Of a DNA stretch of 64,000 bases, positions 5,577 through 39,138 are shown piece after piece. Both the position numbers and the translations under genes were made by a program. The stretch lies in IMG/VR virus record IMGVR_UViG_3300045988_157568; one strand, 5' to 3'. Origin of the DNA: a virus. The notes under the pieces were generated by a model. That model searched no databases. It was not told the DNA's origin and worked only from the letters and a program-made list of their open reading frames with translations. Each line of letters begins with the position of its first letter. Position 1 is the stretch's first letter.

Positions 5577-5591
5577 TATAGTATCCTCCTT

Positions 5592-6215: not shown

Positions 6216-6270
6216 TTTAAACTTCCTTTCATAATTAGTTCTTTGCAATCTCTCTCTTGATTACATTGTT

Positions 6271-7338: not shown

Positions 7339-7339
7339 A

Positions 7340-7747
7340 TTACCACTCCTCCACTTTTTCATTTATCAGTGTTATCACGTCTGCAATCGGATTTTTACTT
7401 GCAATTTTTATTAACCCCTCAACACATCTCTTTAACTCTTTCTTAAATCTCTTTTTAGAAACTAATTCCTCAATGTGGAAATTGATGTTTCCTAAAAGAA
7501 TACACTCGCCGTCCTGTTCATATTCAAGTAATAAGTCAATGCTATTTACATATATTTCTACTAAAAATATACGTTTGCCTTCAGATATATCCGTAATTAG
7601 GTCAATACGTAATCTACCGATATATAACGTGTCAGCTACCATTTTACCCACTACCCATTTTCCTACAAGGGCTTCCTCTAAACAGTGCTTATACAGCACT
7701 TTTAAATTATCCTTAGTCAAATTTGAATTTTCAATTAATTGTTTCAT
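7340..7747 (-). CDS. hypothetical protein
   Basis: ORF with GAGAGGAGAG SD before ATG 7747. Confidence 0.6.
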   Translation of the reverse strand: MKQLIENSNLTKDNLKVLYKHCLEEALVGKWVVGKMVADTLYIGRLRIDLITDISEGKRIFLVEIYVNSIDLLLEYEQDGECILLGNINFHIEELVSKKRFKKELKRCVEGLIKIASKNPIADVITLINEKVEEW

Positions 7748-7765
7748 AACTATCTCTCCTCTCAA

Positions 7766-8065
7766 TTATCTTATCCATACTTCTTCTGCATAAAGCATAG
7801 CATTTTTGAATGTCATTAGAAAATCTTCCTCTGTTATAACTTGATAAAATTCTGTTACAACCGTATCATAGCTATCTTTTTGTTCAACCAAAATAGCATA
7901 ATTTTTGTCATAATTAAACTTAGGGCTTTCGTTGTAAAAAGGTGTATAGCCGTCCCTTTCAAGTTGTTCATACTCCTTTTCAATGTCTTTAGCACTGCCG
8001 AAGATAAGAAAACAGTTGTTTAAATCTCTTTCGCCGTAATTAATGTATACTCTCTTTAACTCCAT
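7766..8065 (-). CDS. hypothetical protein
   Basis: ORF downstream of promoter 8127-8155. ATG 8065 lies 9 nt after AAAGGAA. Confidence 0.6.
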   Translation of the reverse strand: MELKRVYINYGERDLNNCFLIFGSAKDIEKEYEQLERDGYTPFYNESPKFNYDKNYAILVEQKDSYDTVVTEFYQVITEEDFLMTFKNAMLYAEEVWIR

Positions 8066-11910: not shown

Positions 11911-13296
11911 TTATCTGAATATTGTATTAAAAATACTGTTAGCTACATTATTTAATATTTTTGTATTATTAATCTTTGCATTTTCCCTTTTTGGCTTGTT
12001 TTTTGGCTCTTGAAGTGGCTTTTGTGCCGTTGGCACGTCATTATATATTATTGTACTTTTAAGCGGTTTACACCCCTTAAAAAAGCTACCACAAAGTGTT
12101 AAATCATAGTCAACACGTTCACTATTATTTAATACATTCAAGTCGCTTTTTGGCGGTGAAATAAAAGTTTTTTCGGCTTGTTGCGGTATACCTTTACTAT
12201 TTAAACAGGACACTACCGCTTGACCTACTCCCATATTATATAGACATTCCTCAATATCTAAGTTTGGGTTTTGTCTGAATGTTTGAGCCGTTGCCTTTAG
12301 ATTACTTAATTCCTTTTTAGTGTAAGCCCTCACTGCGTGTTGTATTCTGTTTGAAAGTTGGTTTAAAATACTGTCGGGAATATCTGTAACATTTTGAGAT
12401 ATAAAATACACACCGACACCCTTTGAACGTATCAACTTTACAACTTGTGTTATCTTTTGTGCAACACTTTTAGGCAGTCCCTCAAAAATCAGGTGACTTT
12501 CATCAAAGAATAAACAAAGTTTAGGTTTATCACAATCGCCTACTTCCTCTAATTCGTTATATAGCTTATTCAGTAGCCATATAATAAACGTGCTATATAA
12601 CAAGGGTTCTCTTATAAGTTTTACGCAGTCTAATATACTTACTACTCCCTGTCCTCTATCGTCCCTGCACATAAGGTATTGCAAATTAAAAGGCTCATCA
12701 CCGAAAAGACTTTCACCCCTCTGCTGCTCCAATCCCAGTAAGGCTCTTATAATAGAACTTACAGATGAAGAATGAATATTTCCGTAGTCCTCTGATAAAT
12801 CTTCTTTGTTATTCACAACATACTTTATCACTTTGCGTAAGTCAGATAAAGTATGAAGTTTAAAGTTTTCATCTTGTGCGACTTTAAAGATAATGTTTAA
12901 AACTCCGCTTTGTATATTCGTGAGTTTTAACATTCTTGATAACAAAGGAACTCCGACTTCCTCGACTGTCGTTTTTATACCCATTCCACTTTCTTTGAAT
13001 ATATCCCAAAAGGCACAAGGAAAAGCTTCAAAATCAAAGTCGTTTATTTTCATTGCCTTTGCTTTACGTTTAAATTCTTGATTACTTCCTTTCCTCGCTA
13101 TACCACTTAGGTCGCCTTTCATATCCGAGATAAAGCAAGGTATACCTTGTTGAGATAAACCCTCAATAATAACCCTTAGCGTTACAGTTTTACCTGTGCC
13201 AGTCGCTCCTCCGATTACTCCGTGACGGCATAGCATATTACTGTTAAGCACTATGCTTTTACCATTTTCGGACTTACCTATTAAAATTTTGTCCAT
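11911..13296 (-). CDS. HerA-like / DUF853 (YjgR-type) P-loop NTPase
   Basis: CRHGVIGGATGTGKTVTL Walker A and LCLFFDESHL Walker B. The overall N-terminal pattern matches my memory of YjgR/DUF853. Start ATG 13296 after AAGGAAG. Confidence 0.6.
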   Translation of the reverse strand: MDKILIGKSENGKSIVLNSNMLCRHGVIGGATGTGKTVTLRVIIEGLSQQGIPCFISDMKGDLSGIARKGSNQEFKRKAKAMKINDFDFEAFPCAFWDIFKESGMGIKTTVEEVGVPLLSRMLKLTNIQSGVLNIIFKVAQDENFKLHTLSDLRKVIKYVVNNKEDLSEDYGNIHSSSVSSIIRALLGLEQQRGESLFGDEPFNLQYLMCRDDRGQGVVSILDCVKLIREPLLYSTFIIWLLNKLYNELEEVGDCDKPKLCLFFDESHLIFEGLPKSVAQKITQVVKLIRSKGVGVYFISQNVTDIPDSILNQLSNRIQHAVRAYTKKELSNLKATAQTFRQNPNLDIEECLYNMGVGQAVVSCLNSKGIPQQAEKTFISPPKSDLNVLNNSERVDYDLTLCGSFFKGCKPLKSTIIYNDVPTAQKPLQEPKNKPKRENAKINNTKILNNVANSIFNTIFR

Positions 13297-13333
13297 TCTT
13301 TGCACTTCCTTTTAGTATTTAGTATTAGTTATA

Positions 13334-13729
13334 TTATATCATATTATATTGCTTTAGGTATTCTTCTGTAATTTCCTCACAATCGTGGAACTCACATAAT
13401 CCAAGTTGTATTGCAATACCTTTATTAATTTGCTTTTCAAAGTCTTTAGTAATAAAGCCGAGTTTCTCCTCAATATTGTTCTTTGAAAGCACTGTCAAAG
13501 TTTCACATCTGACGACTTGATTTTTAAATAAAAATTCACCGTCAAGACTTACCACGTTCTCCTCTTTAATTGGTATGTGCATTGGATAATCTCTGTTACT
13601 CCTACCAAAGTAGGCAACATTTACAAAATGATTATTTACATTATTCCAACTGTTTGAAACAATCACCCCTTCCCTCATATATCCACTTTTTGTTACTGTT
13701 CTTATTATATCACCACGTTTAAAAGTCAT
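13334..13729 (-). CDS. MazF/PemK-like endoribonuclease toxin homologue
   Basis: FKRGDII...GVIVSN...MHIPI...VVRCETLTVLSKNNIEEKLGFITKDFEKQINKGIAIQLGL parallels B. subtilis EndoA (KRGDVY...VLVIQN...THVEI...LLEQIRTIDKQRL..KI..L....M.KV.EAL.ISLAL). Confidence 0.6.
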   Translation of the reverse strand: MTFKRGDIIRTVTKSGYMREGVIVSNSWNNVNNHFVNVAYFGRSNRDYPMHIPIKEENVVSLDGEFLFKNQVVRCETLTVLSKNNIEEKLGFITKDFEKQINKGIAIQLGLCEFHDCEEITEEYLKQYNMI

Positions 13730-13935
13730 TATAGCTGTCCTCCATATTGTTCTTTATTTGCATTATAGAAATCTAACACCATTTCCGACAAATCCAACTC
13801 CTCATCAATCTCTGTCTTAGCCTTGATATACTTATCAATCATATCAAAAATATCTTTTTTACCTTCCTCAAGTTCTTTAATAAGTCCTTCAATTATAGGA
13901 CTTAATACTTCTCCCTCAATTAATTTATCGCTCAT
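13729..13935 (-). CDS. small acidic protein, candidate antitoxin
   Basis: 68 aa, acidic. Its TAA stop overlaps the toxin ATG (TAATG at 13727-13731). AAAGGAG SD before ATG 13935. Confidence 0.45.
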   Translation of the reverse strand: MSDKLIEGEVLSPIIEGLIKELEEGKKDIFDMIDKYIKAKTEIDEELDLSEMVLDFYNANKEQYGGQL

Positions 13936-13964
13936 TTTTATTGCTCCTTTCAAAATCTTACTGA

Positions 13965-14417
13965 CTAAGCAATCTCTCTTAGTGCGTCAAGTTCTTCCTC
14001 GCTGAATAGTCTTTCAACTTTTGCATATTCATTTACGCACGCTTTCCATACCTTGCGTGACTGCTTATTATAACCGCCCTCAAAATCATCATAAATATCA
14101 AAGCCATAATCATTACAGAAATCCTCATAGTCATCACAAGGGTATTTTTGTAGGCAAGCCAAAACATCATAAGGCGTGACCTCATCTCCCTTTAGGTTTC
14201 CCCAAAATGTGATAAAGAAATGACTTCTTCCCCTCGATACACATACACTGTATTTTGGACGAGGTGTGTCCTCATTCCAAAGAGGGTTAATGAAATAACC
14301 TTTATAGTTAATACTTACTTTTGCACCTGTTTCGAACAGGAATACCTCGGTTGCCTTTTCGTATTCGCCCTGCTCTATTAATAGTCTTAATCTTTTTTGT
14401 AGTCTTGATAATTCCAT
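13965..14417 (-). CDS. hypothetical protein (150 aa)
   Basis: Long ORF; no family recognised. Confidence 0.6.
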   Translation of the reverse strand: MELSRLQKRLRLLIEQGEYEKATEVFLFETGAKVSINYKGYFINPLWNEDTPRPKYSVCVSRGRSHFFITFWGNLKGDEVTPYDVLACLQKYPCDDYEDFCNDYGFDIYDDFEGGYNKQSRKVWKACVNEYAKVERLFSEEELDALREIA

Positions 14418-14502
14418 TCTAAAACACTCCGTTTCTATCGTTTTATACGGCTTTAAAGCCGTTACCTATATATTTATATACCTAAAGGCTTAACAAGGCT
14501 TT

Positions 14503-14877
14503 TTATAAGCCTTGTACCGCCTTATCAATCTTTTCCATTACATCACTTTCAAGGGTATCGGCGTAAGCCTTTGCTCCGTATGCTTTTAACAAGTCCACAA
14601 CTGCATTTTTTATAAGGTCTTTACACTCCCTCATAGCCTTTTGTGACTTGCGTTTTACTGTTTTAATGCACATTGTTTTACAGTCTGTATGAGGTGCATA
14701 GTTTTTGCAAACAATACCATTACCACAATCCTCAATACTCATAAATGTGGTGCTTACATAATAACCTTTTTGGCAATTCCAATTCTTGCCGTCCTCATAA
14801 TCAAAGGTTACTTCAAGTGTAGTCTTGTCATTTACCTTTTTAGTTAGTCCACTTCTTACCATAAAAATCTCGCTCAT
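14503..14877 (-). CDS. hypothetical Cys-rich protein (124 aa)
   Basis: ORF with GGAGGA SD. Confidence 0.6.
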   Translation of the reverse strand: MSEIFMVRSGLTKKVNDKTTLEVTFDYEDGKNWNCQKGYYVSTTFMSIEDCGNGIVCKNYAPHTDCKTMCIKTVKRKSQKAMRECKDLIKNAVVDLLKAYGAKAYADTLESDVMEKIDKAVQGL

Positions 14878-14913
14878 AAATAGTCCTCCATTTCATAATT
14901 AATAACTTTGTTT

Positions 14914-14982
14914 TTACATTGCTTTTAGTGCGGTGCATATTCCAACACCTATTCCGAACATTAATAGTCCGACTGTTACCAT
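14914..14982 (-). CDS. 22-aa hydrophobic mini-protein (not in ORF track)
   Basis: ATG 14982..14980, MVTVGLLMFGIGVGICTALKAM, TAA 14916..14914. GGAAGTGA SD-like sequence 7 nt upstream. First ORF after promoter 15032-15060. Confidence 0.4.
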   Translation of the reverse strand: MVTVGLLMFGIGVGICTALKAM

Positions 14983-15031
14983 TTTTTATTCACTTCCTTT
15001 CCGCTTGTCCTTTCCGCTTGTCTATGCTTAC

Positions 15032-15080
15032 ATTATAGCAAACTCTTTAACCATTGTCAAATAACGATATTCCTCACTTG
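15032..15080 (-). promoter_or_regulatory. SigA-type promoter with AAGTGAGGAATATCG box
   Basis: TTGACA = 15055-15060, TATAAT = 15032-15037, 17-nt spacer. The leader carries a tandem cctttccgcttgt x2. Confidence 0.8.
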
Positions 15081-15096
15081 GGAGGGAATGTGTAGC

Positions 15097-15939
15097 TTAT
15101 GCTACACTATCCAACTCCTCACTATTTGGGTATATCATCTGTACTGCTTTTTCAGCTTTAGCACTTGCGTATAAAATTAAGTGCGTATCATTCTCAAGTG
15201 CTTTTAACCAACTTTGAATATATGCACTTGAATTATCAAAAGTTTTTTCACTGATGTTTAACATACTACATAAAATAGCACTTCCTATTTCAGCGACAAG
15301 CTCCTCTCTTGCATAAGACTTACTTCCAAACTTTCCTCCCATTTCTCTATTTAATCTTGACTTACTTCCTGTACTATGAACAAGTTCGTGGAATAATGTA
15401 GAGTAATATTCCTCGGCACTATCAAACTGCTCCATAGGTGGTACGTTTACCTTATCACAATCGGGGATAAAGTAAGCACTATCCTCATTATCGTGACTGA
15501 TAGACACATTATAATTATTTACATAATCATTTACTACATTTTCGCAAGTATCTATTTTAAATATGTTGTCATTTGTTGCGTGTTTTCTTTTACTCTCTAC
15601 TCCGTCAATGTCATTTATACTGAACACTCTGTAATATCTCAATACCATATGAGATACTTTTGGCTCGTCCTCATTTTCTTTATCTTCAACTTTTGCCGAT
15701 TGATAATAGACTACTATATGACTTTTTGCACCTTTGTGCAACTTTGCACCTTTTATATTCTGTATCTGTTTAAATGTAAGGTACTCACCACCACCCAAAA
15801 GTAGTCTATTAATTCCTCGGTACTCTTTTCGGGTTACATAATTAATGGGAGGGTTACAAGACCAAGACTTGTGCCAAGCAACCTCACCCTGCTTTAACTT
15901 TTCTATTATTGCATTTGTAACTATTTCTGCAACTGTCAT
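15097..15939 (-). CDS. ardC: ArdC-like anti-restriction protein (ssDNA-binding N-domain plus zincin metalloprotease)
   Basis: N-terminal W..W......N..T...Y.G.N..LL pattern (VAWHKSWS...NYVTRKEYRGINRLLL) and HELVHS zinc-protease motif. Confidence 0.7.
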   Translation of the reverse strand: MTVAEIVTNAIIEKLKQGEVAWHKSWSCNPPINYVTRKEYRGINRLLLGGGEYLTFKQIQNIKGAKLHKGAKSHIVVYYQSAKVEDKENEDEPKVSHMVLRYYRVFSINDIDGVESKRKHATNDNIFKIDTCENVVNDYVNNYNVSISHDNEDSAYFIPDCDKVNVPPMEQFDSAEEYYSTLFHELVHSTGSKSRLNREMGGKFGSKSYAREELVAEIGSAILCSMLNISEKTFDNSSAYIQSWLKALENDTHLILYASAKAEKAVQMIYPNSEELDSVA

Positions 15940-19054: not shown

Positions 19055-20065
19055 CTATTCGCTGTTTACCCATATGTATTCAAGTATGTCCCTTAAACCT
19101 AAACCGCCTTCTTCAACTGGTTTCATACAATAGTCCCATATGGCAGGGTGTGTATCTTTCAATATCTGAAAACGGTTAGGTTGTAATTCTCGGTGAACTC
19201 CAAACATACAATACATACAACCTGTCCTTTTGTAGAGAGTTGTGGTAAGCATACCGTCTTTCTCTATAATGTCACCATAACAAGTTGCGATAGGTATATT
19301 ATTAATGTGTATAAATTCAAGCACATCTTGTTCTAACCAAAAGCTCATAGGCTTAGAGATAGGTCTTTGCCCCCTATTGAAAGCGTTACAACCATTCTTT
19401 AACCAATCGTTGCGTCTTAAACTACTCTCACAAGCCATTGTTGCTAATATAGGCTTTAAACAATACATCTTTTCAAAAGCCTTTGCAGGTTTCTTCTTCA
19501 TAATGTCACAACACTTGCTTGAAATTTTAAAGGGTGCTTCTAACAAGCCACGCCACCTTTTCAAGCAATTCTTTGGGTACTTCTTGCAATAATCAGAGTC
19601 AGGGTCAAAGGCTTCTGCACAATAACCGTCAGGCTTACTTCGTGCAAACTCAACCTTTTGAGCCACTTCTTTACTTATGATTGGATAACCTACATCAAGT
19701 ATTACATCTCTAAATGAAATTCGCTTTCCATTCTTGTCCTTAGGATAGTCAATAACAAGCTCAATATGTATATCAGTGTATGTACGTCTCAGGTACTCTA
19801 CAAAGCTCTTAACGTGCTTTTTCAATTCAGGGAACTCTAAACCTGTATCAGAAAACCAAAGTATTAAATCGCACTTTAAAACACTACATACCTGTGCAGC
19901 GATATAGGCTAACACTGTACTATCTTTGCCACCCGAAAAAGAAACATAACACTTGTTATTATTATGTACATACCACTCCATTAAGCGTGCTCTTGTCATA
20001 TCAACTTTTTCACTTAGAGGTTGTGCTTGAAATCGTTGTAAGTCTTGCATAGTATATTTATTCAC
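19055..20065 (-). CDS. PAPS-reductase / DndC-like PP-loop ATPase family protein
   Basis: YVSFSGGKDSTV PP-loop (SGGKDS). C-terminal Cys pair TGCMYCMFG. Confidence 0.7.
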   Translation of the reverse strand: MNKYTMQDLQRFQAQPLSEKVDMTRARLMEWYVHNNNKCYVSFSGGKDSTVLAYIAAQVCSVLKCDLILWFSDTGLEFPELKKHVKSFVEYLRRTYTDIHIELVIDYPKDKNGKRISFRDVILDVGYPIISKEVAQKVEFARSKPDGYCAEAFDPDSDYCKKYPKNCLKRWRGLLEAPFKISSKCCDIMKKKPAKAFEKMYCLKPILATMACESSLRRNDWLKNGCNAFNRGQRPISKPMSFWLEQDVLEFIHINNIPIATCYGDIIEKDGMLTTTLYKRTGCMYCMFGVHRELQPNRFQILKDTHPAIWDYCMKPVEEGGLGLRDILEYIWVNSE

Positions 20066-20089: not shown

Positions 20090-20584
20090 TTATTCGTTAA
20101 GTCTTGTTATGCAGCTATAAAGTGACGGTATCATATTTTGAAATTCAAGAAGTGCTTCGTGTGCTTTATCGGCAGATGAAAAATAAACTTGATTAAAGTC
20201 CCTAAAACACCGAGTAGCCACTACTGTCGGTCTATAACCGTCTTGTGTCACTTCAAGTGTGATATAGTGTTTAGAAAAATTTGGGTCATTCCAATCATCT
20301 GTTGTGATAGGCTTATCATTAAGTGCCTGCCATTGACGTAAGCAATTATAAAATGTTTGGATATAGGCAATATTAGTACATAGCTTTTCAGAATTAAAGT
20401 AATTACCTACTTCCACATATGCGTCTATTGTTTCAGGTATATTGTCCCGACAACCACGGTGAGAATTAAGTGTATGGTCTATATACCAAAAATAAGACTG
20501 TGTATCTGTATCCACTTCATAACCTGTTTTGGCATTGTCCGACTCTTCATACAGAACTCCATTAAATAAAATTTTATTTTTCAT
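20090..20584 (-). CDS. paralogue family B member 1
   Basis: LRQWQALNDKPITTDDW and VYFSSADKAHEALLEF blocks shared with 28041..28613 and 28603..29175. Confidence 0.6.
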   Translation of the reverse strand: MKNKILFNGVLYEESDNAKTGYEVDTDTQSYFWYIDHTLNSHRGCRDNIPETIDAYVEVGNYFNSEKLCTNIAYIQTFYNCLRQWQALNDKPITTDDWNDPNFSKHYITLEVTQDGYRPTVVATRCFRDFNQVYFSSADKAHEALLEFQNMIPSLYSCITRLNE

Positions 20585-20634: not shown

Positions 20635-20685
20635 ATTATAGCATAAAAATAGAGGTATGTCAAATGGAACATACCCCTCACTTTT
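20635..20685 (-). promoter_or_regulatory. SigA-type promoter
   Basis: TTGACA = 20658-20663, TATAAT = 20635-20640, 17-nt spacer. Upstream AAGTGAGGGGTATG box. A second TTGACA at 20601-20606 sits inside the leader. Confidence 0.7.
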
Positions 20686-22832
20686 TATTCATCAAAATCT
20701 AAAGTGACTACTTCGTCAGGCTCTGTGACTTCTTTACTTTCCACTTCTATAACATCTTCATCACTTGACTTATCTTCTGATTTTGAGTGCATATTTGCGA
20801 AAAGTTTTTCAAGAATACCGCCACCTTGTGGATTGCTTACTTGCATTGTTTCATTGACTGTACCGTCAGCTTGCATAGTTCTTGTTTGACGTACAACTGT
20901 CGCTGAACGGCTGTCATACATCTTCATTAAGTTTTGCAACAACTTTGTATTTTGGTCTATCAAAGCCGTTACATCAGCGTCCACCGTACCGTTGATAGTT
21001 TCAAGCAACATAGCCTTTTGCATACGAGATATGTTATGATTAACCATACCCTGCATTGCTTGTATAATATCATTGGCATTTCGAGTGTCAAAACCACTAA
21101 ATAACTTGTGGTAGGCACATACATACCCTGCTTTATATTCAGGACATTTTGCGGCCGCTAAACAAGTGTCACAAGCGAATTTAGGGAATTTCTTAGAATA
21201 TATGTTTTTAGTCTTGGACTTAACAAGTTGCGACCCTTTAATCAACTTACCTGTTTTCTTATCCCTTATCGGAACAATATCCATTTCCCCAAAAATTTCG
21301 TCATCAAGCTCATCAATTTCAGGAGCGGTTTCACCGTCAGGTAAATAACCACCTAATTTTTCAATGATGTTCTCTCTTGATAGCTCAACCTTTTCATATT
21401 CAGTGTCATCTACATATTCGTCACGCTCTTTAACTATTCGGTCAAAGTTTGTCCCCTCAACTAAAAGGGTATCTCTTTCGCCTGATAAACACTCTTTATA
21501 AAATTGAATAAGCTCCCTTACCTTATCTTCATCATCAGGTGTCATTTTATTTATGTACTTGTCGTGGAGATTGTCAAGGGTGTCAATATTCTCATTGAGA
21601 TACAAAGAATGTAATGACTCATATTTAGGGTTATCCCAGTTTAGGAACGCAGTCATATCCATAACTGTATATGCTACTTCTGACATACCATCTCTTTCGG
21701 GATTGATATTCATTTTCTTAGCATAAGTTATTACTTCTTTCGTATTCTTTTCATTTGACAACACCCATTCAGCTGACGGAAAGAAATCAGGAGGTAAATT
21801 ATTTATATCCACCTTAACCGCCTTTAGCTTCTGCCAGTATTGTAGGTGCTTTATGCACTTAATAACGTATTCTTCTGCCTGTTTAAAGGCATATACATTG
21901 ACTTTGATAACTTCGGGTTCGTTATATTCGTCCAACTTCTGAAAATCAACATCAATAGGATAGTTTTTGATTAAAGGAAATGCTTTCTTTTCCCAGTCAA
22001 CTTTATCTATCTGTTGTGTTTTCTTGCCGTTGAATATAATTAATCGACCATACATCATACCAGCTTTCCACGTTGTAGAGTCAACTGTATAAAATGGTAA
22101 CTGTGCCAACTCTCTTATTCTTGTTACACCAAATCCGTGTACAAGAGCACCGTGTTTTTCAGCCGTTCGCAACATATCAATACAATTATCAAGATTAAAT
22201 TCCTTATGAGTATCAGCAGAGGTAAAACCAACATAAGGGTATCTCTTACAATAGTATTCCCAGTTATCAGAGCTAAAGCCTTCGTGATAAACGAAACAAA
22301 CAGGTACTTTAGTTTCAGCCATAAATGGCTCAAAATACTGTTTATTCCACTTCTTAACTGTTTCAGCTCCGACAAGGACTTCAATATCAAGGTTTGCTAT
22401 TGCAAATATATGTTCCTTATGCTTTTCAGCCCACCTTAGATACTTTTCAATATGCTTTTCCCAATCCTCAATGGTGTATTCTTCAAACTTCGGGTCTGTT
22501 TGAAATGTAAAAGCACCAGAGTCAACCATTAAATGAATATCGGGATATTTGTCAAAAATATCCCTTAAATTTCTACCTGAAAGATAGTGATATGACATAA
22601 GAAAATTTCTTATACCTGAATTATAACAGGCTTCAAGATAAGCTCCATACTCTACACCTGAATAAAAGAATGAACAATCCCTTGTTGTGTCCATAATGTC
22701 CTTTAAAGAGTAATCTTCTTGTTTAGGTGTATCATTTGTTGCTTTAGCTTCTTCACCGCTTGTAACGTCATTTAGAGCGTTTACAGGCGGTATATCATTT
22801 TTCTGTATCTTTTTGAATTTTAGCTTTGCCAT
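20685..22832 (-). CDS. dpdA: DpdA-like DNA guanine transglycosylase fused to a long uncharacterised C-terminal region
   Basis: N-terminal third has GIRNFLMSYHYL...DIHLMVDSGAFTF, matching my memory of phage DpdA (..LvSy.. ..DSGaF). Start ATG 22832 after GGGGAG. The C-terminal ~365 aa contain CDTCLAAAKCPEYKAGYVCAYH and an acidic tail. Confidence 0.6.
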   Translation of the reverse strand: MAKLKFKKIQKNDIPPVNALNDVTSGEEAKATNDTPKQEDYSLKDIMDTTRDCSFFYSGVEYGAYLEACYNSGIRNFLMSYHYLSGRNLRDIFDKYPDIHLMVDSGAFTFQTDPKFEEYTIEDWEKHIEKYLRWAEKHKEHIFAIANLDIEVLVGAETVKKWNKQYFEPFMAETKVPVCFVYHEGFSSDNWEYYCKRYPYVGFTSADTHKEFNLDNCIDMLRTAEKHGALVHGFGVTRIRELAQLPFYTVDSTTWKAGMMYGRLIIFNGKKTQQIDKVDWEKKAFPLIKNYPIDVDFQKLDEYNEPEVIKVNVYAFKQAEEYVIKCIKHLQYWQKLKAVKVDINNLPPDFFPSAEWVLSNEKNTKEVITYAKKMNINPERDGMSEVAYTVMDMTAFLNWDNPKYESLHSLYLNENIDTLDNLHDKYINKMTPDDEDKVRELIQFYKECLSGERDTLLVEGTNFDRIVKERDEYVDDTEYEKVELSRENIIEKLGGYLPDGETAPEIDELDDEIFGEMDIVPIRDKKTGKLIKGSQLVKSKTKNIYSKKFPKFACDTCLAAAKCPEYKAGYVCAYHKLFSGFDTRNANDIIQAMQGMVNHNISRMQKAMLLETINGTVDADVTALIDQNTKLLQNLMKMYDSRSATVVRQTRTMQADGTVNETMQVSNPQGGGILEKLFANMHSKSEDKSSDEDVIEVESKEVTEPDEVVTLDFDE

Positions 22833-23355
22833 TACGCTCTCCCCTTTCAGCAATAGTTTTAGTTTTACAAGGTTTTTCTGCACCCCTTAACTCAACACAA
22901 GTATGTGTACAAACCATTGTAACTTTCAGATACTTAGGACTAAGTAATTTATCTAAGCAATCTGCTATTTGTTCAGTTAAATTTTCTTGCAAAGTAGGTT
23001 TTCTGCTTAAAAAGTCAACCAAACGTGGTATCTTACTTAGTCCAATTATCTTGTCACTCGGTATGTACTCAACTGTCACCTTGCCAAAGAAAGGCATTAA
23101 ATGATGTTCACACATACTTTTTACACTTGTCTTTACCTTTACAGGTGTGCCATAACCATTACTCTCATAAGGGAAAGTGGTTAAACCGTTTACAAATTCA
23201 TCTACATTTTCATTTATGTTTTTAAACAGCTCATTGACATACATTTTAGCCACTCTTTTAGGAGTGTCCTTATTGCTTTCCGTGGCTTTTACCCCTAAAA
23301 TGGATAAAATTGCGTCTATACATTCTTCAATCGCTGCTACTTTATCACTGCTCAT
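22795..23355 (-). CDS. folE: GTP cyclohydrolase I (FolE)
   Basis: CEHHLMPFFGKV, IGLSKIPRLV, QENLTEQIA and HTCVELRG motifs. Confidence 0.85.
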   Translation of the reverse strand: MSSDKVAAIEECIDAILSILGVKATESNKDTPKRVAKMYVNELFKNINENVDEFVNGLTTFPYESNGYGTPVKVKTSVKSMCEHHLMPFFGKVTVEYIPSDKIIGLSKIPRLVDFLSRKPTLQENLTEQIADCLDKLLSPKYLKVTMVCTHTCVELRGAEKPCKTKTIAERGERNGKAKIQKDTEK

Positions 23356-23375
23356 CTAAGTCACCCCTTAAAGAT

Positions 23376-23594
23376 TTATCTTGTTAGCTTGGCTACGGTT
23401 GCAGGATTGTTATGTTTGCTATTGCGGTTTTTACCTAAAACCTTATTATTTATATCAATCTCTGACTGGATATAATTTTTTGCTTCCCTTAAACGTGTAG
23501 GGTCTTGTTGAATATCCATAGCTTCTTTTAAAATTCTTGCGTCATTCGCAATTTCCCATTCGGGTCTTTGAGATGTTGTTTCTATTACTGACAT
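23376..23594 (-). CDS. hypothetical small protein (72 aa)
   Basis: ORF between folE and queC. Confidence 0.5.
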   Translation of the reverse strand: MSVIETTSQRPEWEIANDARILKEAMDIQQDPTRLREAKNYIQSEIDINNKVLGKNRNSKHNNPATVAKLTR

Positions 23595-23595
23595 A

Positions 23596-23877
23596 CTACT
23601 TACCTACTTTCTTAGTAATGCCCGCCGTTGCTGGGTCATTACTTCTGCATTTATTTACAATGCTTGTATTAACTGAACCAACTTTAGCAGGGTTAGGTTT
23701 TGTACTCTGTTTAGCAACCTTAGTGTATTTAGCAACTGGTGTCTTTTGTGGCTCAATCTTATTGTGCTGTTCATACTTTACGCCACTGACTACTGCCTCA
23801 TTTTTAGGATTGCCTTTCTTTTCGTTATGCACTGAATGTGCTTGCTTATAATTCTTATCTGTTGCTTGATTAGACAT
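23596..23877 (-). CDS. small lysine-rich basic protein
   Basis: MSNQATDKNYKQ... rich in K/P/N. Start ATG 23877 after AAAGGAG. Confidence 0.5.
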   Translation of the reverse strand: MSNQATDKNYKQAHSVHNEKKGNPKNEAVVSGVKYEQHNKIEPQKTPVAKYTKVAKQSTKPNPAKVGSVNTSIVNKCRSNDPATAGITKKVGK

Positions 23878-23942
23878 AATTAAAATTCTCCTTTCTGTGC
23901 AATAAACCCCACTCACATAAAGTGAATGAGGTTTAGCTTTAA

Positions 23943-24212
23943 TTAACCATTTGCCGCACCACTACGACCACCACGACCGCCACGACCGCCTGATGTTCTT
24001 GTAGTAGACGTTTTTACAGTAGCTGATTTTTGTGTAGTTACAAAACCGCTCTTACCACCACGACCACCTGACGTTTTAGCTGCTCCACTCTTACCGCCAC
24101 GACCGCCTGATGACTTTCCTGCACCACTGCTACCACCACGTCCTGATGAAGCTGGTGTATTAGCATAAGCTGGTGTTGCCATTTTTGCCAAAGCATTGAT
24201 TAGAAACTTCAT
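23943..24212 (-). CDS. RGG-repeat basic protein
   Basis: Four to five SGGRGG(K/R)SG repeats, visible at DNA level as repeated accaccacgaccgcc. N-terminus MKFLINALAKMATPAYA is signal-peptide-like or amphipathic. Confidence 0.55.
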   Translation of the reverse strand: MKFLINALAKMATPAYANTPASSGRGGSSGAGKSSGGRGGKSGAAKTSGGRGGKSGFVTTQKSATVKTSTTRTSGGRGGRGGRSGAANG

Positions 24213-24290
24213 ACTGTTTCACCCCCTTTCAGTGATTATTTTAGCATTTATGCTTAAAAGTATTTTAGCATATTATGTTTTCTTAGTCAA

Positions 24291-24938
24291 TCACCCTAAA
24301 GGGTTATATGAGTACATTTCATCAATTAATTTACAATCACCGCATACACCGCAAGGCTCACCTTTGGCAGTAGGGTTATTGCAACTGAAAAAGTCACCTT
24401 TTTCAATACTGTACTCTCGTGCAACATCAATAAGAGATGTTTTATGCACATAAGCGAATGGGGCTATAAGTCTTATCCCACTTGGCTTTATAAGCTCATT
24501 AAACCTATCAATGAAATTTCGGTCACAATCTTTAAAGCCGTTTTCTTCGGGAGATACATAGTTAAGTCCCATATAAATCTCTTTTATTCCCATTGTTTCC
24601 GCTATATTCATAGCGTGTGATAAAAATACAAGATTACGATATTCCACATATTGCTTCTGAGGAATAGGTGTACCTTGAAAGAAATCATTATCTGTAAGGA
24701 AATGTAGTGGCATATCTATACCATAGTTATTACCCTTTTGTAGATACTTTTGATAAATGCTCCACTCTTGATTTAAGTTGGGTTGTCCATACTTAAAGAA
24801 TAGTAGTGTAAGACATTCGTTTGGATAAAGGTGCATAAGTCTTTCTAACAAGACTACACTGTCAAAACCGCCACTAAAAAGAACTAAACGCTTTTTAGGT
24901 GGTTTATGTTCTATTGGTGTTTGCGACCAATCAGCCAT
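24291..24938 (-). CDS. queC: 7-cyano-7-deazaguanine synthase (QueC)
   Basis: PP-loop LVLFSGGFDSVV. C-terminal zinc motif FSCNNPTAKGEPCGVCGDCK. Start ATG 24938. Confidence 0.8.
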   Translation of the reverse strand: MADWSQTPIEHKPPKKRLVLFSGGFDSVVLLERLMHLYPNECLTLLFFKYGQPNLNQEWSIYQKYLQKGNNYGIDMPLHFLTDNDFFQGTPIPQKQYVEYRNLVFLSHAMNIAETMGIKEIYMGLNYVSPEENGFKDCDRNFIDRFNELIKPSGIRLIAPFAYVHKTSLIDVAREYSIEKGDFFSCNNPTAKGEPCGVCGDCKLIDEMYSYNPLG

Positions 24939-25551
24939 TATTTTCACTCCTTATAAACTGTATGTTGTATAACCTATCTTGAAATAACCAAATAGGAATA
25001 CACTCAATTATTTTAGGGTTATCTGAATAGAATACTACTTTAGCACAAGTTGGATATGTTCTTAGTGTCTTTAGTGCAAATTCATAATCACTTAAATCTT
25101 GTATGTTAAACTTCACTTCATCTGTGGAGCTTAACAATGCAAGGTTAGTAAAAACATTCTTCTTTGCTACACCACTTGAAGGTGTTTTACAGTCTACTAA
25201 GTACCTAAAGCTACGTCTATATGTATCACGAGGGAGCTTATAACAATTACCTGTTTCAATAGCCACCTTATAATCGTCATTCAACAATTCGTATACTAAC
25301 GGATATAATTCATTGAACTGTATTAAAGGCTCACCGCCTGTTATTACAACATTCTTTAGGTCTATACCCTGCTTAAATATTCTACCCATTATTTTATTTA
25401 TTGATGAGCGTTTCTTACACTCAATGGATTGTGAGTGTCGGCATTTATTACAACCGACATCACAACCGAAAAACTCTACATAAATACAAGGCTTTCCTAT
25501 GCCTGTACAATCAGTTTGCAATCCCTTGTAAACGTCATTTATGTAAACCAT
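24931..25551 (-). CDS. queE: 7-carboxy-7-deazaguanine synthase (QueE, radical SAM)
   Basis: FFGCDVGCNKC (Cx3Cx2C), VVITGGEPL, ETGN and CKTPSSG parallel B. subtilis QueE blocks. Confidence 0.75.
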   Translation of the reverse strand: MVYINDVYKGLQTDCTGIGKPCIYVEFFGCDVGCNKCRHSQSIECKKRSSINKIMGRIFKQGIDLKNVVITGGEPLIQFNELYPLVYELLNDDYKVAIETGNCYKLPRDTYRRSFRYLVDCKTPSSGVAKKNVFTNLALLSSTDEVKFNIQDLSDYEFALKTLRTYPTCAKVVFYSDNPKIIECIPIWLFQDRLYNIQFIRSENNG

Positions 25552-25564
25552 AAAACAGCCACTC

Positions 25565-25831
25565 CTATCTTACAACAATTCTTGCAATCATAGCTGTTTT
25601 TACATCACCATTTTCTTCAAAGTCTGCAAAGCCAGCTTTAAATAAAAGTGAGAAACCTTTTGAAGCCACAATACTACTTGCAATAGCAAGTGACTTATAC
25701 ATTTGATTAACGGCAGAAGCACCTACTGCCCTTATTTCTGTTTCTTTGCCTTCTTCAACACAATTTGCAATACAACCTGCAAGTTGTTTAGTTGATGTTG
25801 TGCTTGAAACTTTTAGTAATGTTTTATTCAT
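25565..25831 (-). CDS. spoVS: SpoVS-like protein
   Basis: LKVSSTTSTKQLAGCIANCVEEGKETEIRAVGASAVNQMYKSLAIA...AMIARIVV parallels SpoVS (LKVSAKSNPNSVAGALAGVLRE.G.AEIQAIGAGALNQAVKAIAIAR...). Confidence 0.75.
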   Translation of the reverse strand: MNKTLLKVSSTTSTKQLAGCIANCVEEGKETEIRAVGASAVNQMYKSLAIASSIVASKGFSLLFKAGFADFEENGDVKTAMIARIVVR

Positions 25832-25851: not shown

Positions 25852-26226
25852 TTAATTTCTGCTCTTTATAAGTGTTTTGACATATTCGTACTTAACTTCT
25901 TTCCAGTCCACAAAACCAAAGTTACGACTGTCACAACTTTCATCACTATTATCCCCCAAAAACCAACAGATACCTAAATTATCTGAATGAGAGTTTAATC
26001 TCTTTACAATAAGTCGTTTCTCATTCATAGGCTTATTGAAGAAATAAATGTTGCCGTCTTTTGGTTTACTTGGAAATACCTTGTGTCGTACTCTTTTTGC
26101 CAAAACAATATCATTTGGATAAAAGGTTGGAAACATTGACCTGCCGACTATTACCGTCAAGAAAAACGTCTTGTGTAAGATATAGACTACCAATGCTATA
26201 ATCAATACAATAATAAAGGCTATCAT
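25852..26226 (-). CDS. signal peptidase I (S26)-like protein
   Basis: N-terminal TM helix, GRSMFPT (catalytic Ser box), IVKRL (Lys box), GDNSDESCDSRNFG box E. Confidence 0.7.
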   Translation of the reverse strand: MIAFIIVLIIALVVYILHKTFFLTVIVGRSMFPTFYPNDIVLAKRVRHKVFPSKPKDGNIYFFNKPMNEKRLIVKRLNSHSDNLGICWFLGDNSDESCDSRNFGFVDWKEVKYEYVKTLIKSRN

Positions 26227-26868: not shown

Positions 26869-27585
26869 TTAATTGTCAATTTCGTAGAAAAATTCTCTTG
26901 TAAAATAAGGGCAAAAATCTTCAACTTGCTTTAACAGGCTTTCAATCATCTCTTTAAGCTCTGGTGCAGCACCTGAATTTTTATCTCTTAGCTTTACAAT
27001 ATGTGCAAACTCGGTTATATTGACTTTCGCCGTAAAATCTGACGGTATAGAAAGTCTGCATAAACCCCTTGCAACATCTTTTTTATTAGCTAAATCTTCT
27101 CTTATAAAGCCATTCGCTGTTTTAACATATGTAATACCGTCTTGTACAATAGTAGACGGTAAAGAAATACCTTGAATATCTAATACTTCCCTATCTGTCA
27201 GTATTTTATCTTTGTACCAATCCGATTTTTCATCTTGAAAGTCTGCAAGTCGGGTACTTGCTCTTATAATACGATTATCTAATCGTTTTGCGTGAGCGTC
27301 AAAGTCATCTTGTGCTCCCCTGTGAATACCCAACACCGTAAATTCAAGGTCAATAAATCTTAATAAGGTAATATGTTTCTTACCGATTTTACACACCTTT
27401 TCAATCTCTTTGCAAAAGGTTTCAGAGGTTTCAAGGTCAGTAACAACTGCACCCCTTGTTGATGTATTCAGTTTTTCCATAAGATATATGTCACTTACCT
27501 TCTCTTTTGTAAGGTGTCTTTTGCTGGTATACATAGAGGTTATAGCTGACGCATAACCCGATATTTTATTTAATAATACTTCCAT
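26869..27585 (-). CDS. ThyX-fold (flavin-dependent thymidylate synthase-like) protein with divergent signature
   Basis: HITLLRFIDLEFTV and NITEFAHIVKLRDKNSGAAPELKEMIESLL...FCPYF parallel ThyX blocks. The RHR..S.R signature region reads FDAHAKRLDNRIIRASTR. Confidence 0.55.
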   Translation of the reverse strand: MEVLLNKISGYASAITSMYTSKRHLTKEKVSDIYLMEKLNTSTRGAVVTDLETSETFCKEIEKVCKIGKKHITLLRFIDLEFTVLGIHRGAQDDFDAHAKRLDNRIIRASTRLADFQDEKSDWYKDKILTDREVLDIQGISLPSTIVQDGITYVKTANGFIREDLANKKDVARGLCRLSIPSDFTAKVNITEFAHIVKLRDKNSGAAPELKEMIESLLKQVEDFCPYFTREFFYEIDN

Positions 27586-28040: not shown

Positions 28041-28613
28041 TTATTCTGATAAACTTATTATAGCAAAATTGTTCCGTTTAGGCAAATGGCACTTTACCTC
28101 GTCCAGTCGTTGCAGATAGCTTTTATAATACCACTTAATTTCTGACTCAAAAGTTTTAACCGCCTGCTCACAAAGCTCTTTTGACGTGAAATAAATCGTA
28201 CCAAAATCACGAACACGAACTGAGTCAAGTACAAGAATTGTATCATTAGAATAATTGTAAGTAAAGTACCACTTAGACATTGTACTTTCTTTCCAATCTT
28301 TACTGGTTATTGCTCTATCGTTGTCTGCCTGAAATTTTCGCAACATATTTTTAAGAGTAGTAGCTCTATTTACACATTGTGCAATTTCCTCGGAAGTAAA
28401 ATAATTACCGCTATCGAACAATACTACATCATCATAATAACTGTCTTCTGTTAGGTTCATTACCCCATTACTTGATACTACATAATAGGTTTCACCACTT
28501 CTTGCTCTCTCATAGCCAGTTAAATTAGACTTTATAAGCCCTAATTTAGTCGCTTTTTCTTTTGAAATATTGATAAAATCTATCTTACCATTCACTTTTA
28601 TTCTAAATTTCAT
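28041..28613 (-). CDS. paralogue family B member 2
   Basis: LRKFQADNDRAITSKDW and IYFTSKELCEQAVKTF blocks. Confidence 0.6.
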   Translation of the reverse strand: MKFRIKVNGKIDFINISKEKATKLGLIKSNLTGYERARSGETYYVVSSNGVMNLTEDSYYDDVVLFDSGNYFTSEEIAQCVNRATTLKNMLRKFQADNDRAITSKDWKESTMSKWYFTYNYSNDTILVLDSVRVRDFGTIYFTSKELCEQAVKTFESEIKWYYKSYLQRLDEVKCHLPKRNNFAIISLSE

Positions 28614-29175
28614 CTTTCTCTATCCTTTCTGTATAACCGATATGTGTTTTACCTTGAAATTTATTAAAGTACCAATCTATATCTTCCTTAAATTCTTGAA
28701 TAGCTTCGTTGCATTTTTCTGCTGATGAAAAATAAACTTGACTTATCATATCATACTCAAAGGATTGTGCTCTTGCTACATAGGTACATCTATCATAGCC
28801 TGTTTCCTTTGAAATTACCCACCTAATTTTAGGTTGTTCATTTGGGTTATATGTCGATATTGGTTTATCATTAAGGGCTTGCCATTGCAATAATTTTAAA
28901 TATATCATTACTGCTTTTAACACCTTATTGGCAAACTGCTTATTATTAAAATAATTTGCGTAGCTGTATAATGTATCAGCGTCAATAGTATGGTTATCTA
29001 CCGACTTCTTAACAGCTAAATCTATATAAAAATAAGGTTGGTTGTAAGCAACTCTACTAAAGCCTGTATCATATAGAGGTTTACCCTCTGCTGACAACCC
29101 TAAATAGTTTGCTTGCTCGTCTGTTATGTCTAAGCGTGTTATGCTTCCGTCCTTTGCCTTTACTGATATTTCCAT
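28603..29175 (-). CDS. paralogue family B member 3
   Basis: LQWQALNDKPIST and VYFSSAEKCNEAIQEF blocks. Start ATG 29175. Overlaps the methyltransferase 3' end by ~95 nt. Confidence 0.6.
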   Translation of the reverse strand: MEISVKAKDGSITRLDITDEQANYLGLSAEGKPLYDTGFSRVAYNQPYFYIDLAVKKSVDNHTIDADTLYSYANYFNNKQFANKVLKAVMIYLKLLQWQALNDKPISTYNPNEQPKIRWVISKETGYDRCTYVARAQSFEYDMISQVYFSSAEKCNEAIQEFKEDIDWYFNKFQGKTHIGYTERIEKDEI

Positions 29176-30117
29176 TGAAATCACCTACTCTCTTTATTCC
29201 TTTAAAGATGTGCTTTATAACTTCTATTGTCCAACCGTCACCACACATATTGTATATGTGAGAGTCAGCTACATTCATCTTGTACCAATCAGGTATTGTC
29301 TGCAACTTCCTATACTCGTTTGGAGTAAGTTTTCTACACCTGTTTCTATCCAAAATTTTCTTCTGTGTATTTCCACCCCGACAGCCTGTCAAAGTAGGAC
29401 TTTTAAAATTGATGTTATTAACTCTTTTCAGAATATCGTGTCCATTAATATGTAAGGTGGCTATAACTTTCTTACTGTTACCGTGAAAGTCAAAACCCTG
29501 CTCATAGAAATATTTTTCAGGCACATCTTTATCCATTATATCCTTTATTACCTGCTTACTGGCTAAAGGTAATGGAGCGATAGGTATGTTTGTCCAATAC
29601 AAACGCTTTCTATCTTGTGCCGAAAATATATTGCTGTCAATTAAACGAGGTTTAACACCAATCACTTTTGTTATCTTAGCTATATCAGTCTTATTATTAC
29701 TGTCCACATTCTCAATCATAAAGAGAACGTCAGGGTTATTATTCGCCTTTATCCATTGTAGTATAGCATTACAGGGATAGAATAACCACGATACACCTTT
29801 TAAGCCATTATTATATTCTTTCGCCCTGCCGTTGCCTTTGAAAGTGAACAGCAAGGACTTCCGAATATAACTAAATCAATCTTAGGTAGGTTACTTAGAG
29901 CGTCACCTTTGACAATAAGTTCGTCATCAACTTCTTCAACAAAGTTCATAACGTCACCTATTTGTATGGTATCAGGGAAGTTATCTTGTGTAACCTTTAT
30001 TGCGTTCTTATCAATTTCACTTGCAAAATATTTATTGATTTTGTAACCGCTTTCAATTAAAGCAATCTGTCCACAACTCATTCCGTCACACAAGCTCAAC
30101 ACATTTAAAGGTTTCAT
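29081..30117 (-). pseudogene. DNA (cytosine-5)-methyltransferase split over two frames (N-fragment 29800..30117, C-fragment 29081..29854)
   Basis: N-fragment has motif I (LSLCDGMSCG) and motif IV (GSPCC). The C-fragment, in the -1 frame, has motif VI (LFMIENV) and a late GDGW block. The frames overlap at 29800-29854, with the junction near GGGCGAAAG (about 29815-29826). Confidence 0.75.
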
Positions 30118-33092: not shown

Positions 33093-33752
33093 TTACTCTC
33101 CATTCTTTTTAATTCCTGCAACCGTAAAATCGTCCAATGAAGGGTGATTTACCTTTGTATACATAGCACACACTATATTCCACAAAAATGCAATGTTATG
33201 TGGTTCATCTTCCAATCCCACCATTACCTTTGTTAAGTGCCTTAAAGCACTGTCTATAAAGCTATGTAAAGGTAAACCTTTTTCCCAGTTTCTTGCTTCA
33301 TACTTCAATGCCCCATTCTCATAATGTTTTGCCAACTCCCAAAGAGTGTTAAAGAAAAAGGTAGTGTACTCACTGTTAAGTGCCTGTATGCTATCCAACT
33401 TTACACCCGACTTATAAGCGTTTAGAATTACGCCTAAATGAAACGTTGACAGTAGCGTTTGATAACTACCCAATTTTCTGAACAAATTTAATTGAAAATA
33501 TATCTGTGCTATAATTCTTACTTCAAGCTCATCTAACTCCCCCTTTTTTGGTGGACGTTCTTCAATAAGCAATGTCCTAAAAATCGCATTATAGTCATCA
33601 ACATTAAGTTGAGTAACTATATTTGATATTTCTGCTAAAGGTAATAAGTCAAACCTACCTTTACCCTGTACAATTTCTCTCATTGCACCTGTTTCAAAAT
33701 GTGTTCTTTCACCACTATCTTGAAGTGGTGTTTTAGCTTTTATCTTATTCAT
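33093..33752 (-). CDS. MazZ-like (DUF5664-type) dATP/dGTP pyrophosphohydrolase homologue
   Basis: N-terminus QDSGERTHFETGAMREIVQGKGRFDLLPL matches my memory of the DSG.R..F.TGA.RD...GKGR.DL signature of this family. Confidence 0.5.
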   Translation of the reverse strand: MNKIKAKTPLQDSGERTHFETGAMREIVQGKGRFDLLPLAEISNIVTQLNVDDYNAIFRTLLIEERPPKKGELDELEVRIIAQIYFQLNLFRKLGSYQTLLSTFHLGVILNAYKSGVKLDSIQALNSEYTTFFFNTLWELAKHYENGALKYEARNWEKGLPLHSFIDSALRHLTKVMVGLEDEPHNIAFLWNIVCAMYTKVNHPSLDDFTVAGIKKNGE

Positions 33753-36574: not shown

Positions 36575-36824
36575 TAATTTCGCTCCCATTCTTAAAAGAT
36601 AATATATCTCTGTTTTTCGCTCCTTTTATCACTTCCCAGTAAAGGCAATAGGAAGTGGTATCAGTGTGTATCATATCATATTCAAGCACATTTGGGTTTT
36701 GACAAAGTTCTTCTTCATCACCCACCGCCTGATAAAAGTGTTCACAATTTAAGCAAGACATAACATAACTGTTGCCTTTGGCTTTATTCTTAAAATCCTT
36801 AAAACCACGCCCTGTTATCTTCAT
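36525..36824 (-). CDS. small Cys-containing protein (99 aa)
   Basis: CLNCEHF...C; basic tail overlaps the next gene. Confidence 0.5.
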   Translation of the reverse strand: MKITGRGFKDFKNKAKGNSYVMSCLNCEHFYQAVGDEEELCQNPNVLEYDMIHTDTTSYCLYWEVIKGAKNRDILSFKNGSEINGRKKKESNTRKKSSK

Positions 36825-38959: not shown

Positions 38960-39138
38960 TATTCCAAACACTCCCCTTCATACAAATCTCTTATTTCATA
39001 ATCGCCGTCACTCTCAAGCTGATTTATAAGAGCAGTTATGATATAATCAGTGACAGAAACATCTGCGTCCACTGCCACCTTACCAACACGCTTATAAATA
39101 CTTTCGGGTATTTGACAATTTAGTCTGTGTAGTTTCAC
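38959..39138 (-). CDS. ribbon-helix-helix (CopG/Arc-like) protein, 59 aa (not in ORF track)
   Basis: GTG 39138 after AAGGAG (8 nt); VKLHRLNCQIPESIYKRVGKVAVDADVSVTDYIITALINQLE.... Its TAA overlaps the recA ATG. Confidence 0.55.
   Translation of the reverse strand: MKLHRLNCQIPESIYKRVGKVAVDADVSVTDYIITALINQLESDGDYEIRDLYEGECLE

Follow-up and report, generated by a model that had tools for sequence, protein, structure and literature searches.

By modifying their DNA with 7-deazaguanines, phages escape restriction enzymes and some CRISPR nucleases, and the base made by a given phage is currently predicted from the presence or absence of the biosynthesis genes. Here we analyse a putative 7-deazaguanine cluster in IMG/VR virus record IMGVR_UViG_3300045988_157568, on a stretch of 64,000 nucleotides (the window), where FolE, QueC, a QueE-like protein and a DpdA-type transglycosylase are encoded together. 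The closest described systems are those of the phages CAjan, Rosebush and BCD7. The CAjan DpdA is genetically required for the formation of dPreQ0, the deoxynucleoside of 7-cyano-7-deazaguanine (preQ0), and in Rosebush DNA about 28% of G is replaced (PMC6884629 for both). BCD7 (NC_019515) carries the cluster gp021-gp028, which Hutinet 2019 places in the preQ0-pathway group. Seen from its sequence, the locus in the window is a 7-deazaguanine DNA-modification module of the BCD7/DpdA1 kind, a variant of the known phage DpdA system, from which QueD has been lost and in which QueE is profoundly altered.

The window corresponds to bases ~68-64067 of a 91,842-bp metagenome contig of the Joint Genome Institute. 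The region beyond the window (27.8 kb of that contig) was represented by a relative that is 92-99% identical to the window, IMGVR_UViG_3300045988_151345, whose 91,494 bp carry a 119-bp terminal overlap indicating a circular assembly. The phage is a myovirus; human-gut assemblies that contain it are very numerous, and its lineage is by far the most often sampled of the clade. Relatives of its endolysin are found in Clostridia genomes, which makes a Clostridia species its probable host. A megablast search with the cluster against 50,697 phage records gave no match. For comparison we used 18 relatives: BCD7, three metagenomic relatives (DpdA 50-65% identical) and 14 IMG/VR contigs (DpdA 42-51% identical). 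Contigs with a DpdA at least 98% identical were counted as the window species, and L024, L025 and L026 denote sister lineages of uncultured gut phages (P0002 stands for the contigs of L024, P0005 for those of L025).

The original prediction had named four genes of the cluster from motifs in their translations. All four open reading frames (ORFs) were recovered at the positions and with the motifs given, all on the minus strand, and the assignments to FolE, QueC, QueE and a DpdA-like protein proved right at the level of fold and family (Pfam, NCBIfam, PHROG and hhalign). The cluster is real, far beyond chance. Its features, with the evidence in brackets, are:

20685-22832, minus strand: DpdA, long form, 715 amino acids (phrog_887; hhalign to the CAjan and Rosebush DpdA).
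22795-23355, minus strand: FolE, GTP cyclohydrolase I, 186 amino acids, canonical (PF01227, NF006826).
23376-23594, minus strand: small ORF s72, 72 amino acids (homologues in L024 and L026).
23596-23877, minus strand: lysine-rich small ORF s93, 93 amino acids (homologues in L024 and L025).
23943-24212, minus strand: small ORF s89, 89 amino acids (translation).
24291-24938, minus strand: QueC, 215 amino acids, canonical (PF06508, PP-loop, four-cysteine zinc motif).
24931-25551, minus strand: QueE-like radical S-adenosylmethionine (radical-SAM) protein, 206 amino acids, with a remodelled substrate pocket (TIGR04349, alignments, AlphaFold2 model).
25552-25564, minus strand: deletion scar of 13 nt, from the SpoVS stop to the QueE start (sequence and synteny).
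25565-25831, minus strand: SpoVS-like gene, which marks the syntenic position of QueD (PF04232 at 8.5e-18, synteny).

Central to the argument is the absence of QueD. The CxxxHGH signature has no occurrence in the six frames of the window, and tblastn searches with the QueD of BCD7 and of E. coli found no match. A QueD hidden Markov model (HMM) built from five QueDs, which detected its positive controls in L024-L026 and BCD7 at 1e-50 to 1e-61, was run with the --max option on every open frame of at least 30 amino acids and matched nothing, either within the window or in what remains of the circular relative's genome. When 66 further ORFs of the window were scanned with Pfam, PF01242 (PTPS) was not among the families, of which the second batch gave the best 25 of 42. 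The lack of a visible QueD, noted in the original prediction, is therefore borne out by motif, HMM and Pfam scans of the window and extends to the rest of the 92-99% identical circular genome. Also, no second copy of QueE, FolE or QueC and no other T-fold protein was found.

The gene order SpoVS-QueD-QueE-QueC-...-FolE-DpdA is kept in 18 of 18 relatives, each with a canonical CxxxHGH QueD of 129-162 amino acids. Among the compared contigs the loss is limited to the window species, where the SpoVS stop and the QueE start are 13 nt apart. A frameshifted QueD remnant at this junction was ruled out, only those 13 nt being there. As judged from sequence and synteny, these comparisons show that the module derives from a complete FolE-QueD-QueE-QueC-DpdA set from which QueD was cleanly deleted in one species. 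The complete preQ0 set in its canonical form (group 2 of Hutinet 2019) is not encoded, QueD being missing and QueE non-canonical. In part 1 of Supplementary Data 1 of Hutinet 2019, which contains every DpdA and DpdA2 entry, no phage has FolE, QueE and QueC without QueD.

The second change lies in QueE itself. Automatic annotation names the protein 7-carboxy-7-deazaguanine (CDG) synthase, and among the NCBIfam models it fits TIGR04349 QueE best (E 3e-31). It scores 108.6 bits against this model, about half of the 176-202 bits of the relatives; the cut-off is 300, and the canonical phage relatives also lie below it. Of the alignment columns found near-invariant across 13-14 relatives with QueD, the window lineage has 19 of 54 altered (35%) in QueE, compared with 4/47 in FolE, 2/27 in QueC and 5/143 in DpdA. 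When the protein is aligned to E. coli QueE (6NHL), Gln12 (equivalent to Q13), the cluster cysteines C30, C34 and C37 (CDVGCNKC) and the GGEP motif are retained. Thr13-Asp14-Cys15 stand in place of Gly14-Glu15-Gly16 (QGEG becomes QTDC), Glu26 in place of Arg27, and, after the third cluster cysteine, Arg38-His39 in place of Asp39-Thr40. In addition, the C-terminal QxQ(L/M)HK motif, kept in the other aligned full-length homologues, is gone. The final codons of the gene (ata agg agt gaa aat aat ggc tga) include the ribosome-binding site of QueC (AAGGAG, upstream of the ATG at 24938); because of this, the C-terminus is, on the evidence of these codons, a read-through made by a deletion.

The replaced residues have known roles. 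In QueE, Q13, E15 and R27 bind the substrate and T40 is a Mg2+ ligand, and the R27A substitution in the E. coli enzyme abolishes queuosine formation (PMC11142719). Arg27 forms a salt bridge with the carboxylate of 6-carboxy-tetrahydropterin (CPH4), while Mg2+ bridges this carboxylate and the C4 carbonyl (PMC5347944). We collected 57 QueE homologues from a database of 5.8 billion proteins: Arg27 is present in 55/57, Gly14 and Glu15 each in 54/57 and Asp39 in 56/57, and 56 of the 57 read CD(T/Q) where the window protein reads CRH. Glu at the place of Arg27 is seen in the window protein's cluster only. The combination of T-D-C, Glu26 and R-H occurs, among these homologues, only in the 90%-identity cluster of the window protein (132 sequences). 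Identities to the window protein leave a gap between 99% and 50%.

The change in QueE is also asymmetric. Mean identity to 12 more distant clade relatives is 37.5% for the window QueE and 53.3% for both sister lineages, whereas the same comparison (window/sister/sister) is symmetric for DpdA (45.5/46.4/46.0) and for FolE (45.7/46.8/47.0). By this asymmetry, QueE changed in a burst on the window branch.

The altered protein is nevertheless strongly constrained. Across four strains of the QueD-less species, no stop codon was found in the cluster genes, and QueE has a ratio of non-synonymous to synonymous polymorphism (pN/pS) of 0.03-0.04. This ratio comes from the two comparisons that had sufficient substitutions, with synonymous against non-synonymous counts of 8:1 and 12:2. 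All 14 full-length members read from its cluster carry the variant residues without exception, and the eight most widespread members together lie on ~480 contigs. The AlphaFold2 model has a predicted local distance difference test (pLDDT) score of 90.5; its top PDB matches are the QueE structures 5TH5, 6NHL and 4NJG (B. subtilis, E. coli and B. multivorans), with query-normalised template-modelling scores of 0.72-0.75 for 6NHL/5TH5 (0.75 for the E. coli enzyme) and 0.61 for 4NJG. As modelled, it is a constrained, folded protein of the QueE fold.

The genes on either side of the missing steps look ordinary. FolE matches PF01227 (E 1.7e-46, 158 bits against a cut-off of 27) and NF006826 (4e-45) and carries the zinc-ligand motifs CEHHLMPF and HTCVELRG; it overlaps the start of DpdA by 38 nt and its pN/pS is 0.11. 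QueC matches PF06508 (E 2.6e-26, 92.9 bits against a cut-off of 22), scores 71 where the equivalog cut-off of NCBIfam is 150, has the PP-loop LFSGGFDS and a C-terminal C-x9-C-x2-C-x2-C, and shows a pN/pS of 0.07-0.12. With DpdA (pN/pS 0.08), the strain sequences show these three genes to be present, intact and under purifying selection.

Assigning the large ORF to DpdA required sensitive methods. HMMER found no match for it in Pfam, NCBIfam or PDB sequences, and Pfam TGT (PF01702) was matched by 0/21 family members even at E 10; phage DpdAs are known to require HHpred-level methods (Hutinet et al.). Over its full length the ORF matched phrog_887 ('queuine tRNA-ribosyltransferase', E 8.8e-67), and in hhalign the profile of its 21-member family (A2) aligned with the DpdA of CAjan (96.6%, E 6.6e-10) and of Rosebush (97.9%, E 3.2e-13). 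Mycobacteriophage DpdAs were also matched by tblastn. The motifs SYHY, DSGAF, HGFG and DS(T/S)xW are common to the A2 family and to the CAjan and Rosebush proteins. In the window protein, amino acids ~45-340 form a predicted DpdA1-type TIM-barrel transglycosylase domain with SYHY, DSGAF (D104), HGFG (H232) and DSTTW (D251), the last three motifs being invariant across 21-22 family members. H232 presumably corresponds to the 'His196' of Hutinet 2019, the histidine that DpdA2 lacks. The BCD7 orthologue, 36% identical over 79% of the length and with the same C-terminal extension and four-cysteine motif, is entered as DpdA in Supplementary Data 1 of Hutinet 2019.

In the AlphaFold2 model the N-terminal barrel has a pLDDT of ~85. 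Foldseek against the PDB returned generic TIM barrels only (E ~1e-3), TGT and DpdA not being among the top 50; against BFVD it returned phage queuine tRNA-ribosyltransferases (E 1e-5 to 1e-9), including the DpdA of Dinoroseobacter phage R5C. Since the PDB search gave only generic barrels, membership of the family rests on hhalign, BFVD and PHROG. DpdA is as conserved in the window lineage as in the QueD-containing relatives. By these comparisons the large ORF is a DpdA1-type homologue of the validated DpdAs, and it is predicted to insert a 7-deazaguanine into DNA. Its C-terminal extension of ~375 amino acids carries four invariant cysteines (C554, C557, C563 and C572) in ACDTCxAAxKCPEYKxGYVCA.

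The same extension (window 20685-21800, amino acids ~350-715) also matches phrog_6902 'terminase small subunit' (E 3e-7) and, weakly, Pfam DDE_Tnp_1_6 in 17/21 members and a BFVD small-terminase model. In one relative (L016, 1-6400) a separate small terminase was not recognised upstream of the large terminase, and in Rosebush a terminase gene likewise adjoins dpdA.

How might such a module work? Most parsimonious is a host-assisted model, to which we give even chances, in which the phage lacks the textbook middle steps, the host supplies CPH4/CDG or preQ0, and the QueE-like protein has an altered role. FolE would feed GTP into the pathway. The two middle steps, from dihydroneopterin triphosphate (H2NTP) to CPH4 and from CPH4 to CDG, would no longer be run by textbook chemistry in the phage; CPH4/CDG, or preQ0 itself, would be drawn from the host, probably a member of the Clostridia. 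QueC would turn CDG into preQ0, and DpdA would act on the replicated phage DNA, putting that base in the place of guanine and thereby protecting the DNA against restriction. The QueE-like protein would have been kept for a changed role, either on an altered substrate or in a non-catalytic function. Dependence on the host for the middle steps is suggested because QueD and the carboxylate-recognising residues of QueE were lost on the same branch. Two consecutive steps, not one, are affected, since the carboxylate-binding and Mg2+ residues of QueE and its C-terminal motif are gone too. The original prediction had taken a preQ0-level base as the simplest outcome and only the CPH4 step as missing. 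The base is plausible, albeit not secure, and the final base is uncertain; the other half presupposes a canonical QueE, which the window phage does not have.

Several points weigh against the host-assisted model. The preQ0 genes are missing in some Clostridium species (Hutinet 2019), and, with the host narrowed only to the Clostridia, its queD and queE are presumed. If the host provided CDG or preQ0, the need to keep FolE and QueC would not be obvious. Purifying selection means that the QueE-like protein does something, which the model leaves unexplained. Together, R27E and D39R might form a charge swap by which carboxylate binding is kept. Finally, the chemistry is read from sequence and models.

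The charge swap is the core of the alternative that survives best, which we consider credible if rather doubtful and which corresponds to the original prediction, with the CPH4 step alone outsourced: the protein would still be a CDG synthase, Arg38 replacing the lost Arg27 in carboxylate binding, with host QueD giving CPH4 and the DNA carrying dPreQ0. The retained QueE fold, with 5TH5, 6NHL and 4NJG as top matches, is consistent with this, as are the retained Gln12, GGEP and three cluster cysteines, Asp14, which differs from E15 only conservatively, the strong purifying selection on the protein and the presence of a canonical QueC, which requires CDG. R27E with D39R does resemble a reciprocal charge swap; yet R27A alone kills function in E. 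coli (PMC11142719), the Mg2+ ligand Thr40 is replaced as well and the C-terminal motif is deleted. Moreover, the alteration of 35% of near-invariant positions, concentrated at substrate contacts, is hard to explain with an unchanged substrate.

It is improbable, in our judgement, that the protein was instead adapted to a substrate lacking the 6-carboxylate, such as a pterin derived directly from the FolE product, which would make QueD dispensable and open a QueD-independent route or lead to a different deazapurine. Such new chemistry would account for the loss, in the same lineage, of the carboxylate-installing enzyme and of exactly the residues that bind its carboxylate, and for a burst of change followed by strong constraint. 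Read from the sequence, the new residues Asp14, Cys15, Glu26 and His39 are of types that typically serve in metal or acid-base roles, and the lineage is the most frequently sampled of the clade by far. However, the retained canonical QueC requires a carboxylate substrate, the DpdA pocket is unchanged (5/143 columns), there is no known precedent, and the shortened C-terminus resembles collateral damage of a deletion more than design.

Least probable by our estimate, and scarcely credible, is decay, by which the module is being lost, the DNA is unmodified, QueD is gone, QueE is crippled and the other genes are relics: two deletions flank QueE, one per side, essential residues are replaced and the window holds, at another place, a C5 methylase that is likewise split, but no strain read has a broken copy of any of the four genes (pN/pS 0.03-0.12), the altered QueE sites are invariant in 14 full-length members, members of the QueE sequence cluster are on several hundred contigs and DpdA is conserved as in the QueD-containing relatives.

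Reading the gene content 'FolE + QueE + QueC + DpdA' as dPreQ0 is unsafe in the window phage, because its QueE lacks the residue whose mutation kills activity. The case bears on the outsourcing of a pathway to the host, on the indispensability of Arg27 and on alternative QueE-like substrates. If the protein did acquire a new function, it would mark a new branch point in deazapurine biosynthesis, and this in the most common phage of a clade that is widespread in the gut. Human-gut metagenomes contain the lineage extremely often, so that it should be possible to obtain its DNA or isolates.

The three tiny ORFs said in the original prediction to interrupt the cluster are real (72, 93 and 89 amino acids, between QueC and FolE), and two of them are conserved in relatives. 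s72 shares its position with, and is 54% identical to, a 72-amino-acid ORF of L024 and is 36% identical to an ORF of L026; it ends in ...NNPATVAKLTR and has no family match in Pfam, NCBIfam or PHROG. s93 is 43-51% identical to ORFs of 91/92 amino acids that occupy the matching place in L024 and L025, and it carries ...NDPATAGIT..., an N(N/D)PAT(V/A)G motif being common to s72 and s93. s89 begins with a hydrophobic, signal-peptide-like stretch (MKFLINALAKMATPAYA), followed by a part rich in Gly, Ser, Arg and Lys with RGG-type repeats. In composition and position it is like s62 of L024 and gp023/gp024 of BCD7, with no significant alignment to either. The suggestion that an unassigned ORF performs the QueD step finds no support here: a cryptic QueD among the small ORFs was rejected, s72 and s93 having homologues in QueD-containing relatives, s89 being of low complexity and all three being shorter than a T-fold unit. 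From their sequences, they belong to the cluster as conserved partners or passengers and do not disguise a QueD.

As a side observation, the N-terminus of s89 resembles a Sec signal peptide (…ATPAYA) ahead of its RGG-type repeats, and a phage gene for signal peptidase I (S26) lies ~1.6 kb from the small ORFs (region 25852-26226). No preQ1 riboswitch, other Rfam family or tRNA was found in the window.

A 219-amino-acid ORF at 33093-33752, with homologues in L024 and L026, has a dATP/dGTP diphosphohydrolase N-terminal domain (PF18909, 7e-15; phrog_801), a hint that the phage may manipulate the dGTP pool as well as replace G. At 26869-27585 lies a divergent ThyX-like protein (phrog_24884 'thymidylate synthase' 3e-65, weak Pfam Thy1 9e-7) that could be a pyrimidine-modifying enzyme instead of a plain thymidylate synthase. 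A PP-loop protein resembling phosphoadenosine phosphosulfate (PAPS) reductase (19055-20065; phrog_424 1e-41) is encoded two genes downstream of DpdA; its membership in the cluster was rejected, as its 26% identical L024 homologue lies elsewhere and none was seen near the cluster of L025 or L026. The C5 cytosine DNA methylase (29081-30117) is split into overlapping ORFs of 105 (N-terminal) and 257 (C-terminal) amino acids; L024 has an intact 365-amino-acid C5 methylase plus an N6/N4 methylase.

Core genes of the window contain inteins (36821-38971 and 40066-44061): RecA has a LAGLIDADG intein, and DNA polymerase A apparently two, one HNH and one LAGLIDADG. In one relative (L016, 6397-10158) the large terminase is a single ORF of 1253 amino acids with apparent insertions of intein or homing-endonuclease type, as judged from its translation. 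Three paralogous ORFs of 164-193 amino acids (20090-20584, 28041-28613 and 28603-29184), one of them directly downstream of DpdA, share the core '...(L/F)Q(W/A)(Q/D)ALND(K/R)(P/A)I...' and have no family match. A run with an anti-defence or plasmid-like character (11911-15939) comprises a HerA-type ATPase (11911-13305), a PemK/MazF-like toxin (13334-13729) and a protein with ArdC-N and zincin metallopeptidase domains (15097-15939). The first 885 positions are AT-rich, with no ORF of at least 70 amino acids, and the first 2 kb have a GC content of 28%.

Within the clade, many QueD-containing relatives (L025 at 5181-6731; L031, L034, L035, L037, L038, L040 and L043) have a QueC of ~520-570 amino acids, possibly a Gat-QueC fusion leading to an archaeosine-type base, and L026 has an extra radical-SAM gene of 292 amino acids (7112-7990) in the interval from FolE to DpdA. 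Several kinds of final base are probably made within the clade.

All together, the locus can be set against four described or related cases. With the DpdA1/dPreQ0 systems of CAjan and Rosebush (PMC6884629) it shares a homologous DpdA catalytic domain with its motifs, and FolE, QueC and a QueE-type gene alongside. Those DpdAs are 306-385 amino acids long and have no C-terminal extension, whereas the window DpdA has one; CAjan and Rosebush encode QueD and a canonical QueE, which the window phage does not. BCD7 is closer: like the window phage it is a myovirus with a genome of ~92-94 kb, and the order signal peptidase, SpoVS, ..., QueE, QueC, small ORFs, FolE and long DpdA is common to both. However, it has QueD (gp028, CKNLHGH) and a canonical QueE (QGEG, FVR, CD, QTHK), and the window phage has neither. 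Compared with canonical QueE (6NHL, 5TH5 and 4NJG), the window protein has the fold, CxxxCxxC and GGEP in common and differs by Gly14 to Thr, Glu15 to Asp, Arg27 to Glu, Asp39 to Arg, Thr40 to His and the loss of QxQLHK. Finally, the sister lineages (L024, L025 and the 14 IMG/VR contigs; DpdA 42-65% identical) have the architecture of the window, with homologues of s72 and s93 in L024 and L025 and of s72 only in L026. Unlike the window species, all of them have QueD and a canonical QueE, and they thus offer a natural control pair.

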